Origin: Solirubrobacterales bacterium
GTDB lineage: Bacteria > Actinomycetota > Thermoleophilia > Solirubrobacterales > 70-9
Direction: 5' to 3'
Length of the DNA stretch: 32,255 nt
Assembly (NCBI GenBank): GCA_035566275.1
Contig: DATMRN010000212.1
Coordinates: 1 to 32,255, forward strand
The notes under the pieces: model-generated
Database searches by the model: none
Told to the model about the DNA's origin: nothing
The model's input: the letters and a program-made list of their open reading frames with translations, nothing else
Position numbers and translations under genes: made by a program
Shown here: piece after piece, positions 1,875 to 19,383 of the stretch
Numbering within the stretch: position 1 is the first letter of the stretch
How the letters are laid out: every line of letters starts with the position of its first letter

Positions 1875-2564
1875 GTGGCCTCCGGTAGACGCGCAGCCAA
1901 GGTGAATGAGCGGCTGCCGCGAGGGAGACACGGCTTGCCGCGGGAGGCGGTGACCGAGTCCCAGCGCAACCGCATCCACCAGGCGATGATCGAAGTCGTC
2001 TCCGAGCGGGGCTACCCCGATACGCGCGTGGTCGACGTGATCGGCGTCGCGGGAGTGTCGAGAAAGACGTTTTACGAGCTGTTCGACAGCAAGGAAGACT
2101 GCTTCCTGGCCGCCTACGACGTGCTGCTGGGGAATCTGCTGAGCGACACGGCCGGGGGCTTCGAGTCGAAGCCCGGGGCGCCCTGGGCGGAGCGCGTGGC
2201 GGCGGGCCTGGGGGCGCTTCTCGATCACCTGGCCGAGCACCCCGACGAGGGGCGGTTCGCGATCGTCGAGGTGCTGGCGGCGGGGCCGAAGGCGCTGGCG
2301 CGCCGGGACGCGGCGCTGCGGCAGTTCACCGGGTTCCTCGATGCCGGGCGCGCGGAGACCTCGGTGGAGCTGCCCGGGATCACCTCGCTGTCGCTGGCCG
2401 GCGGGATCAACGAGCTGCTCTACAGCGAGATCCTGCACGGGGCTGCGGCGCGGCTGCCGAGCCGGCTGCCGGACCTGATGTTCTGGGTGACGCTGCCGTT
2501 CCTGGGGGCCGAGGGAGCCGCCGCGGAGCGCGAGCGGACCCGGCTTTCGATGCTGGAGCGCTAG
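1875..2564 (+). CDS. TetR/AcrR-family transcriptional regulator
   Basis: 229-aa ORF with an N-terminal TetR helix-turn-helix (SQRNRIHQAMIEVVSERGYPDTRVVDVIGVAGVSRKTFYELFDSKEDCFLAAYD). Start is uncertain: GTG 1875 or GTG 1902. Confidence 0.85.
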   Translation: MASGRRAAKVNERLPRGRHGLPREAVTESQRNRIHQAMIEVVSERGYPDTRVVDVIGVAGVSRKTFYELFDSKEDCFLAAYDVLLGNLLSDTAGGFESKPGAPWAERVAAGLGALLDHLAEHPDEGRFAIVEVLAAGPKALARRDAALRQFTGFLDAGRAETSVELPGITSLSLAGGINELLYSEILHGAAARLPSRLPDLMFWVTLPFLGAEGAAAERERTRLSMLER

Positions 2565-2629
2565 CTCGGAACTTGTTAAGGCGCTCTTTTCTGTGAATGG
2601 CTGGGTTTATTTATTAGCCGATGCTGGTA

Positions 2630-2657
2630 CTTTGGCCCCTGGAGGGATAAGCCAAAG
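2630..2657. promoter_or_regulatory. inverted repeat CTTTGGC-N14-GCCAAAG upstream of paralog A (candidate operator or 5-prime UTR hairpin)
   Basis: CTTTGGC at 2630-2636 and its exact reverse complement GCCAAAG at 2651-2657. It lies in the AT-richer 147-nt gap between the TetR gene and ATG 2712. The same half-site forms a palindrome at 14360-14371. Confidence 0.25.
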
Positions 2658-2711
2658 CTTTCAATGGCCGGGGCTCGGGACGGGCAGGCCAAAAAGGAGA
2701 GATATAAGGAC

Positions 2712-18100: not shown

Positions 18101-18510
18101 AGGATGAGGGCGCGGCGGGGGCTCGGGCGGAGGTTCCCGACTGTGCCGCGGTCCCAAGGAGAAAGCGTCGTCACCTTCGGGTCGCGGCGCAGGGTGCGGA
18201 TCAGCGCGGGGCCTTGGCGGTCGAGCGCGGGGACGGGACCGCGCAGGAGGATCGCAAAGGGCGCCGTGTCGCCGAAGTGTTCGCGCAGCATGTCGTTGGC
18301 GCGCGAGGCCGAGGTGCCGGGGATATCAAGCGTCGCCGGGCTGAGCCTCCCCTCGAGGCCGAAGCCAAAGGCAGCGAGAACGACGATGGCCAGCGCGGCG
18401 ATGGCCAGCGCCCGCCGGGGGTGCCGCAGCGTCACCGGGGGGCGTGCCTCGCTCTCACGACCAGCGCGCGCACGATCGGCCCGGCCCCTGCTCCTCCTCC
18501 TCATAGGCAC
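15184..18510 (-). CDS. MMPL-family RND transporter with a large heptad-repeat extracytoplasmic insertion
   Basis: 1108 aa. Two hydrophobic bundles (about aa 35-55 plus 195-395, and about 925-1090). Paired motifs GLALGVDYALLMVSRFREE and GLSIDYAVFLLVRMKEH correspond to the MMPL Asp-Tyr proton-relay helices. The start is GTG 18510 or ATG 18504. Confidence 0.93.
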   Translation of the reverse strand: MPMRRRSRGRADRARAGRESEARPPVTLRHPRRALAIAALAIVVLAAFGFGLEGRLSPATLDIPGTSASRANDMLREHFGDTAPFAILLRGPVPALDRQGPALIRTLRRDPKVTTLSPWDRGTVGNLRPSPRRALILADFHVGGDVAVKDKVPLLNRVLEEKIHAPVRATQTGAATLTRSIQDESIAASERGELIAFPILLLVLLLVFRSPVAAAIPLGFGAVSVLTSRGLLAILTHWVGVDALALTVCSMMGLALGVDYALLMVSRFREELAAGAEPLDAAWATRRTAGRTTVFAGSTLVLSMLVAFFIVPGALLASLAGTLALVVVLTVLVATLVGPPILVLLGPNLDRWRLGRAPNGERSRLMTLVHAALRRPAPVAALIGAVVLVLAAPAIGLKTGPFSVTQLPHNDPARRDAELIGRSVGPGFEAPYVIVAAADHGTITEPDRLAALTRWQRRIAALPSVQVVIGPGQITHRIAPLRETGSALLASGGKTGPLGQLGKLGRNLDIAAGGVSQLRSGLSQASSGAGLLAEGSGRAATGALSISRGLAVAGAGSKKAVTALESFATGAARLAAAQRQAALGALQLKFSTHDLIPNLRHNALRRSRKVQKSLNEESNVKLPQLIAPAKAAEEQLKTALQQLLAMTVGKTDTHYGPALEAVRQASAAVGGTDPVSGQPYAPGYAGLPTELVELQKRLLVDAEEAKEVTLSLVSEIIHLKEISAGAKRLSDGLEKIEGGGNKLAHGSARLARAASSLEGGLGRLVTGAAALAGGVSRLTGGATALEENLANGFRRSAPLQSGLNRAGVRVIAGNAKLQRRLGAVRRSTPGIFNSGYFVLSALDGARGQQRERAAETVDLEDGGQAATLLVISHYSFNSPGSIALNKRLEGDAAALGKEAGAATGVAGGAATLNTYSHVTRARIPYVIAAITLATFLVLVLVLRALPLAAIAVGLNLATVGVAFGILTLLFNVPDGWPLGGRTYVDAVGATMIFGVVFGLSIDYAVFLLVRMKEHYDRDGDNAAAVEFGLEKTARVITGAAAIMMAVFIAFAGAPIATVSQLGIGLTVAVLLDATVVRIVLLPALMLLIGDRVWWLPRSLERVLPRLNV

Positions 18511-18627
18511 GGGTGGTAGTTTGGCGGTCCGGGGAGCGGGAAGAGCGAACAGCTGCGGAAGACTCTGTTAAGAACGTAGAAGTGGAGCTTCCGGACCCCC
18601 GGCGCTAGCCTGGGTCGAGGGGGCGAT

Positions 18628-19383
18628 TTGAAGAGACACCTGACAATCGGGGCACTCGTGGTGGTTTGCCTCCTGCTCGTGGGGGGAGCGAGCGCGGCGG
18701 TCGTCGAGGTCGGCAATCTCGTGCTGCGGGCCGACGGCGGCTTCGAGCCTCTCACGCTGCCCCGCAAGGCCTTCGCGCCGATCGACTTCCAGGGGCACGC
18801 CGACATCGCGGCGAAAGACGGAAGCGTGCCGGCCGTCCTGCAGGAGGTCGTCCTCGACTTCGACCGCGACGGGCGGCTGAACACCCGCGGGCTGCCCACC
18901 TGCCCGGTGGGTCGAGTCGAAAACGCGACTCCGCAAGAAGCGCGAATGGCCTGCAGGGGAGCGATCGTCGGCACCGGCCATGTCGCCGCGTCGATCGCCC
19001 TGCCGGGACAGGCGCTGCTGCATGCCGACTCGCCGCTGACCGTATTCAACGGCGTCCCCCAGCACGGCGACCCGACCGTCATCCTCCACGCACGCACGAC
19101 GACCCCGGGGGTGCAGACCTTCTCGATCGTCGTGCCGATCGAACGGCGGCTCGGGCCCTACGGCTACCGGGCCACGATCGACATTCCCCCGATCGCCGCC
19201 GGCTTCGGCGCCCTCACCCACATCGACGCGAAGATCGGCAGGCGCTACAGCTTCGACGGCCGCAAGCGCAGCTACACCTCCGCCCGCTGCTCGAACGGCA
19301 TCCTCCAGACCCGCGGCCGCTTCACCTTCGCCGACGGCACGATCATCGACGGGTCCGTGATGAAGCCCTGCAGCGTCCGGTAG
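18628..19383 (+). CDS. secreted 4-Cys protein of unknown function, paralog C
   Basis: 251 aa. TTG start preceded by GAGGGGG (18617-18623). Signal peptide MKRHLTIGALVVVCLLLVGGASA. Homologous to paralogs A and B (GNLV, LPRKAFAPI, RGLPTC, ACRGAIVGTG, VFNGVPQHG, IPPIAAGFGALT, RKRSYTSARC...TRGRFTFADG...PC). Confidence 0.8.
   Translation: MKRHLTIGALVVVCLLLVGGASAAVVEVGNLVLRADGGFEPLTLPRKAFAPIDFQGHADIAAKDGSVPAVLQEVVLDFDRDGRLNTRGLPTCPVGRVENATPQEARMACRGAIVGTGHVAASIALPGQALLHADSPLTVFNGVPQHGDPTVILHARTTTPGVQTFSIVVPIERRLGPYGYRATIDIPPIAAGFGALTHIDAKIGRRYSFDGRKRSYTSARCSNGILQTRGRFTFADGTIIDGSVMKPCSVR

Follow-up and report, generated by a model that had tools for sequence, protein, structure and literature searches.

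Actinobacteria import and export lipids chiefly by way of the Mce and MmpL systems, and knowledge of these is almost entirely mycobacterial. The present analysis concerns a locus at positions 1875-19383 of contig DATMRN010000212.1 (GenBank assembly GCA_035566275.1, a Solirubrobacterales bacterium), where six mce genes and an MMPL gene are interleaved with three genes for secreted proteins sharing four cysteines (the 4-Cys paralogs A, B and C). The whole stretch of 32,255 nucleotides (nt) that was analysed is termed the window; its GC content is high (~0.66-0.72), and its named database relatives are in every case Solirubrobacterales metagenome-assembled genomes (MAGs). The host lineage is not known to make mycolic acids and is presumably monoderm. 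The layout of the locus is real and undescribed, but on the evidence it is better read as separate systems that adjoin one another than as a single new machine.

Genes and proteins of the locus

On the plus strand, a gene for a TetR-family regulator (1875-2564; PF00440, E 7e-8, over the N-terminal helix-turn-helix) is followed by paralog A (open reading frame [ORF] 2664-3470, likely start 2712), recognised by its alignment with B and C. The six mce genes (mceF-A, 5423-14204) lie on the minus strand, as does the conserved non-coding leader or promoter that precedes mceA (14205-14330), and each encodes a PF02470 MlaD/MCE domain. Paralog B (14392-15171, plus strand) is divergent from mceA, with 187 nt between them. 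The MMPL gene (15184-18510, minus strand), whose 1108-residue product matches PF03176 twice (E 1e-56), converges on B with a gap of exactly 12 nt and is divergent from paralog C (18628-19383, plus strand; aligned with A and B) across 117 nt. The ORFs and Pfam matches thus bear out the initial annotation's gene-by-gene description (TetR, A, six mce, B, MMPL, C), and the coordinates agree with the convergent and divergent orientations that it gave.

The hexad comprises mceF (5423-6976; PF02470 E 1e-19, with a weak PF11887 match), mceE (6973-8388; E 4e-10), mceD (8385-9893; E 1.4e-14, its start taken from the source annotation), mceC (9890-11317; E 1e-12), mceB (11314-12831; E 2.6e-6) and mceA (12798-14204; E 1e-9, with PF11887 at E 5e-8 and TIGR00996 at E 1e-33). 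Neighbouring genes share 4 nt at four of the junctions and 34 nt at the other. The products share 20-28% pairwise identity and all six, MceF included, bear an N-terminal transmembrane helix, so that the full canonical complement of six MCE-domain paralogs is present. MceF, the sole Mce protein searched against structures, matches the Mycobacterium smegmatis Mce1 chains (PDB 8fed, chain 8fed_B). The locus resembles mycobacterial Mce1-Mce4 in its six consecutive, translationally coupled but mutually diverged mce genes, in the plan of each product (N-terminal transmembrane helix, MCE domain, long helical and tail region) and in the lack of an ATPase gene within the operon. It differs in lacking yrbEA and yrbEB upstream of mceA, where the MMPL gene is found instead. 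No mam genes were recognised beyond mceF, where the ORFs at 3968-4612 and 4656-5084 match nothing in Pfam or NCBIfam. Further, unlike mycobacterial MceE, the MceE of this locus is no lipoprotein, as its N-terminus has no lipobox.

The genes downstream of mceF differ from locus to locus among the relatives described below. In the window, a low-GC stretch of 1.95 kb (3471-5422; GC 0.57-0.59) is inserted between A and mceF, and a close relative (L005) has merely ~120-240 bp in its place. Of the two minus-strand ORFs within it, the one at 3968-4612 encodes a transmembrane protein and the one at 4656-5084 a secreted protein that is small and rich in Cys. Weak homologues of these ORFs (25-33% identity) occur downstream of mceF in five other loci (L084, L101, L113, L121, L123), and the stretch also carries two strong hairpins, at 3498-3524 and 3556-3582.

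The MMPL product has the two PF03176 halves with transmembrane bundles that define its family, and like MmpL3, whose PDB chains are the closest to its transmembrane regions (E 2e-46), it is built as a two-fold repeat. It nevertheless scores only 189.5 bits against the MmpL3 equivalog model NF052608, for which the cut-off is 1400, and also fails the actII cut-off. Its second extracytoplasmic loop has an insertion of ~300-400 residues (residues ~497-779; window ~16174-17022) that matches TIGR03057, a model of xxxLxxG heptad repeats. An AlphaFold2 model of the protein, with a predicted local distance difference test score (pLDDT) of 62 overall and 60-83 within the insertion, places helices at residues 539-645 and 687-779; the insertion is predicted to form an antiparallel helical hairpin with ~100 residues per arm, ~150 Å long. 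The insertion is kept in all 120 orthologues listed (1035-1120 residues). MmpL4 and MmpL5 also bear a long helical hairpin in the second extracytoplasmic loop. The locus is set apart from MmpL3, MmpL4 and MmpL5 by scores far from the MmpL3 and actII cut-offs, by the heptad character of the insertion, by the flanking 4-Cys genes and by the lack of an adjacent MmpS, since PF05423 matches none of A, B, C and the ORF at 19498-20307.

The three paralogs share 32-35% identity and four invariant cysteines. Each begins with a hydrophobic, Sec-type N-terminal signal ending in an AxA site, and neither a lipobox nor a twin-arginine motif is present. Export by the Tat route, which the nearby tatA and tatC genes had brought to mind, was rejected because the signal peptides carry RK or KR rather than RR. 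In the case of A, the ATG at 2712 is preceded by an AAGGAG ribosome-binding site and is likely the true start. Pfam and NCBIfam scans of A, and Pfam scans of B and C, returned no match. The family to which they belong is very large, with at least 2,108 matches in a 90%-identity database and 2,698 clusters at 50% identity (E <= 1e-3); among the 120 best matches listed none carries a Pfam domain and the named ones are hypothetical proteins. Most members have 250-270 residues. Some are tandem fusions, and tandem-domain proteins of ~460-500 residues are found in the representative library (P0121, P0129, P0147).

For paralog B, an AlphaFold2 model built on a 50-sequence alignment (pLDDT 87; predicted template modelling score 0.82) gives a mature protein that is all-beta, with ~18 strands, some of 13-17 residues, and one helix flanked by the first cysteine pair. 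Foldseek against the PDB yielded nothing at E < 1e-3 (best TM-score ~0.33), and a profile search of PDB sequences with the paralogs was empty; the fold may be new. The initial annotation had proposed that the paralogs are lipid carriers akin to LolA, LprG or LppX. Those proteins, too, are secreted envelope proteins near lipid transporters, but no similarity of sequence or fold to them was detected: no LolA, LprG, LppX, MmpS, LpqN or Mtc28 chain is among the top 50 Foldseek matches of B, and together with the empty profile search this led us to reject a lipid-carrier fold. The top matches are adhesin, pilin and Ig-like beta-sandwiches (Sgo0707, Bbp/ClfA, CppA, EcpA). They lend some colour to an alternative in which the paralogs act as adhesins at the cell surface or as structural components of the wall and take no part in lipid traffic, their position at this locus being an accident of an expanded mobile family; the great size of the family, its frequent tandem arrangement and its occurrence beside large secreted beta-propeller-like proteins point the same way. 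However, none of these matches is significant (E > 0.006, TM-score <= 0.33), and the B and C orthologues are positionally stable over long divergence, leaving this alternative distinctly unlikely.

Conservation and regulation of the layout

In a scan of genomes with the paralog alignment, 52 loci were recovered, each of them in a MAG of Solirubrobacterales or of an unclassified actinomycete. A metagenome scan with the family alignment added 80 loci, in all of which the match is an orthologue of B, and hence supplied no independent contexts. In 24 genome loci a common core is seen, consisting of mceF-A, usually a divergent B, the MMPL gene on the mce strand and one to three divergent copies of C; it continues into a transmembrane-protein gene of the type found at 19498-20307 and then tatC, tatA, ispB and ubiE. 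The 39 long metagenome loci have a layout identical to this genome core. Within the core, B lies between mceA and the MMPL gene in 18 of the 24 genome loci and has been lost from the remaining six (L020, L028, L031, L036, L039, L043), so that, judged by gene content, B is dispensable. C occupies its position in one to three tandem copies in every locus reaching that far, and is doubled or tripled beside the MMPL gene in L011-L015, L021, L049, L050, L059, L062 and others. Even in a rearranged locus (L045), the MMPL gene and a C-like gene are kept, with no mce gene within 10 kb. Of the 4-Cys members, C has the closest positional link to the MMPL gene. A and TetR, by comparison, flank mceF solely in the subclade of the window, and do so in three different orientations. 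TetR orthologues of 84-94% identity adjoin paralog A in five loci (L002, L003, L005, L052, L126), and the TetR-A block is still beside mceF after local inversions in L051, L052 and L126.

Beyond these orthologous loci the association of the family with either transporter loosens. In 20 of the 52 genome loci, family members have neither an mce nor an MMPL gene within 10 kb, their contexts including tandem arrays, TetR neighbours, an MpaB/FtsH neighbourhood and pairs of large secreted proteins. The synteny survey thus gives no backing to a family-wide tie to mce or MMPL genes, and it comes close to the scatter without enrichment that the initial annotation had itself counted against its proposal. 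An MMPL gene is found within 10 kb in ~2 of 22 non-orthologous family loci, which is no clear enrichment over a rough estimate of MMPL density. TetR genes are rare overall (11 of 905 called genes in the family loci) yet are the immediate neighbours of 7 of the 79 runs of family genes, in ~4-5 independent contexts; TetR genes, and not those for Mce or MMPL proteins, are therefore the neighbours with which the family is most clearly and repeatedly associated. Taken as a whole, and on the evidence of its gene neighbourhoods, the 4-Cys family is no dedicated Mce or MMPL subunit. The secreted pairs recur as a protein of ~750 residues with PD40-like, beta-propeller-like repeats and another of ~900-1130 residues with no Pfam match; they stand beside 4-Cys members in L001 (4181-9957 and 11312-16830), L008 (3328-8363) and L019 (1-7504) and are homologous between loci. 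The paralog domain was looked for within the large neighbouring secreted proteins and not found.

Regulatory features of the window likewise show no sign of a common control. Conservation is higher over the ~125 nt upstream of mceA than in the coding sequence of the flanking genes, and the blocks at 14299-14318 and 14254-14268 are invariant. Read towards mceA, this leader consists of the invariant block GCGTTGAWTTCCAGTTAAGT, a variable hairpin, another invariant block (GCTCGGATACGATTC), a further hairpin whose loop contains GGAGG (~27 nt before the start codon), the segment AAGCGACGAYCC and the GTG start of mceA. It is present in 76 loci, those without paralog B among them, and is single-copy in the window. 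No Rfam covariance model matches it (best E-value 9), so that no known RNA family was recognised, and RNAalifold detected no compensatory pairs or other covariation support; the leader might act either as a hitherto undescribed cis-regulatory RNA or as a promoter to which a regulator binds. Since it is conserved with or without B and is unique in the window, the mce operon appears to be its own regulatory unit. A single operon of the MMPL and mce genes is also unlikely in the window, as B lies between them on the opposite strand and the mce leader starts right after B.

A perfect 12-bp palindrome, CTTTGGCCAAAG, lies at 14360-14371, 20 nt upstream of the start of B, and a matching half-site is seen upstream of A. 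Its candidacy as a shared TetR operator was rejected, as no other locus carries it and 9-mers are shared only at chance level. No motif was found in common among the regions upstream of TetR, A, mceA/B and MMPL/C, and the suggestion that the paralog, mce and MMPL gene sets are co-regulated accordingly lacks a common cis-element. Upstream of the TetR gene itself, a conserved motif, CTCTACAGT (a TACAGT -10 element), lies in the region 1855-1875, 7-10 nt before the GTG start, and recurs at the orthologous loci; from its position, the TetR mRNA is probably leaderless.

The wider surroundings are those of a housekeeping region. Upstream of the TetR gene lies purA (456-1814, plus strand; identified from the ORF listing, its translation and Pfam and NCBIfam scans), and farther upstream the parent 70-kb contig, as annotated by the source, carries dnaB, rplI, rpsR, ssb and rpsF. 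A DnaC/IstB-like ATPase ORF (window 5-502) follows dnaB and overlaps the start of purA, while the dnaB of a related locus (L053, 6569-9253) contains an intein with a LAGLIDADG domain. Downstream of C, the minus-strand gene at 19498-20307 encodes a 269-residue transmembrane protein with no Pfam or NCBIfam match, with a single transmembrane helix at its N-terminus and a long tail that is helical and rich in Lys and Ser; most of the related loci long enough to cover this region have the gene between paralog C and tatC. After it come tatC, tatA, ispB, ubiE and cytochrome bc and haem genes, in that order, and parB and parA lie ~8 kb beyond the window end (source annotation). Because its flanks hold dnaB, rplI, rpsR, ssb and rpsF on one side and parB and parA on the other, the locus is placed near the replication origin. 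The synteny of tatC, tatA, ispB and ubiE is as strong as that of the core, and since such unrelated housekeeping neighbours are equally syntenic, conservation alone is no proof of a functional unit; as read from gene order, common descent accounts for the synteny no less than function does.

These observations bear on the proposal that the interleaving marks a functional unit, which in its fullest form would be a composite machine with the Mce needle, the MmpL protein and the 4-Cys proteins as carriers or adaptors between both machines and the wall. The part of it that stands is the conservation of the architecture across an order-level clade: the order mce / B / MMPL / C is kept in ~65 loci, counting the 24 genome and ~39 long metagenome loci, C still adjoins the MMPL gene after the L045 rearrangement and has undergone tandem expansion in place, and the TetR-A block stays beside mceF despite the inversions. 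Set against this are the equal synteny of the housekeeping neighbours, the inconstancy of B (lost in a quarter of the core genome loci) and of A (adjacent in one subclade only), the 20 independent family loci without mce and MMPL, the absence of clear MMPL enrichment or of a regulatory motif in common, and a paralog structure that shows no resemblance to a lipid carrier. On balance, a composite machine is unlikely.

The missing permease and the engine of the Mce hexad

The canonical actinobacterial module consists of yrbEA, yrbEB and mceA-F, while the gene for MceG, a shared component, lies at another site (PMC13492129; PMC9882608). By this standard the locus is incomplete, as the two yrbE genes expected immediately upstream of mceA are absent. 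The Pfam scan found no PF02405 (MlaE/YrbE) match on any sizeable ORF of the window, and the source gene and Pfam list shows no MlaE/YrbE or MceG-type ATPase in the flanks, from ~9.5 kb upstream to ~8.5 kb downstream. Two MlaE sequences, confirmed by Pfam as PF02405 (E 2e-71 and 1e-57), served as probes, and neither these nor a hidden Markov model made from them matched anything in ~1.8 Mb of related loci (best E 0.68). The sole ABC ATPase of the window (29714-30451), which is of the ABC-2 type and has an ABC-2 permease as its partner, is unrelated. The lack of a local permease and ATPase, as first noted for the locus, therefore holds for the window, for ~18 kb on either side taken together and for the ~1.8 Mb that the related loci comprise.

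Published gene counts for cultured Thermoleophilia (Supplementary Data 1 of PMC10665443) offer a context for this absence. Patulibacter americanus has 12 MlaD-type and 2 MlaE genes, the latter lying as a pair on a different contig; Thermoleophilum album also has 12 and 2, with a hexad (SEH10482-10487) that has no adjacent MlaE; and Conexibacter sp. Seoho-28 has 56 and 14 (PMC10665443). These counts mean that hexads outnumber permease pairs in Thermoleophilia, and orphan hexads are thus to be seen in the published data, though no paper discussing them was found. Supply of Mce components in trans has a mycobacterial precedent, where MceG is shared and the orphaned oMce1A co-purifies with MceG (PMC9882608). 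The present locus is comparable to oMce1A, OmamA/B and the shared MceG in that Mce parts encoded away from a core operon would act in trans; it is unlike oMce1A and OmamA/B in that a whole hexad would be the orphan and the permease pair would be distant, an undescribed arrangement. The initial annotation had suggested that the needle might be served by something other than a local YrbE pair. This survives insofar as no local pair exists, but the likeliest supplier is an unlinked YrbE pair and not a new engine.

A more radical alternative is that the MMPL protein replaces YrbEAB-MceG, with the Mce hexamer docked on, or energised by, a protein of the resistance-nodulation-division (RND) type powered by the proton motive force. 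The main point in favour of this alternative, as of the composite machine, is that the MMPL gene stands at the site usual for yrbE. No MlaE was found, moreover, in the ~1.8 Mb around the loci. Long helical projections are found on both the Mce and the MMPL proteins. Escherichia coli PqiAB and LetAB offer a precedent for MCE proteins working with non-ABC membrane partners (PMC13492129). The likeness of the locus to PqiABC/LetAB is confined to not using the MlaE/MlaF ABC engine: no PqiA or LetA homologue was seen, and those systems are multi-MCE-domain homohexamers of diderms. Against such an engine stand the YrbE pair that cultured Thermoleophilia with surplus hexads retain, the opposite-strand B between the MMPL gene and mceA in most loci, the conserved leader that the mce operon has of its own, and the retention of the MMPL gene and C without nearby mce genes in L045. 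We know of no case of MCE-RND coupling. An MMPL-driven Mce hexamer is thus quite improbable, and its most elaborate form, in which a hexamer without an ABC engine would be driven by the proton motive force through the coiled-coil MmpL while B and C served as adaptors in the wall zone, where the two helical projections have their tips, is more improbable still.

Probable separate systems in a conserved envelope neighbourhood

The reading that we consider to have a slightly better than even chance is that of a split Mce system served in trans, which lies beside an independent stalked MmpL and members of a secreted family, all of them separate units. The locus would then be a conserved, origin-proximal envelope neighbourhood of separate transcription units in uncultured Solirubrobacterales. 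The orphan mceABCDEF operon would produce six membrane-anchored MCE proteins that form the usual heterohexameric ring and needle, and their ABC engine (YrbEA/YrbEB with MceG) would most likely be supplied by one unlinked yrbE locus that the hexads share. The MmpL3-like RND protein would act as an independent proton-driven exporter whose hairpin would reach through the wall zone. A, B and C would be Sec-exported, all-beta proteins with two probable disulfides, drawn from a large lineage-specific family of many contexts; C, and less so B, might conceivably serve as an extracytoplasmic partner of the MmpL protein. TetR would regulate paralog A, its most likely target.

Certain points weigh against this picture of separate systems, most of them to do with the fixed position of the MMPL gene. 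The MMPL-mce pairing persists down to ~54% MMPL identity, and because the layout holds over this range, the core is ancient. In every locus the MMPL gene sits exactly at the position upstream of mceA that yrbEAB usually occupies, and in four of the loci that have lost B (L020, L031, L036, L039) it is co-directional with mceA and directly upstream of it, by 134-217 nt; a purely coincidental neighbour does not explain its placement at the yrbE site. Further, the unlinked yrbE/mceG locus in this lineage is inferred by analogy with cultured relatives. To our knowledge, MceG is the one component shown to be shared by different Mce hexamers, and no organism is known to share YrbE in this way.

Full-text literature searches found no paper on Mce-MMPL pairing or on Mce systems in Solirubrobacterales, in keeping with the first assessment of the architecture as undescribed. 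The locus brings to light a huge secreted family with neither annotation nor a structural relative in the PDB, together with a conserved mce leader element. Above all, it shows that a widespread group of soil Actinobacteria keeps a complete Mce needle operon without permease genes, fixed beside a stalked MmpL, and thereby raises the question of what engine in the membrane an Mce hexamer works with. If that engine is a single shared YrbE pair, the sharing of a permease between hexads would be new; if it is the MmpL protein, the locus would encode a new class of transporter.

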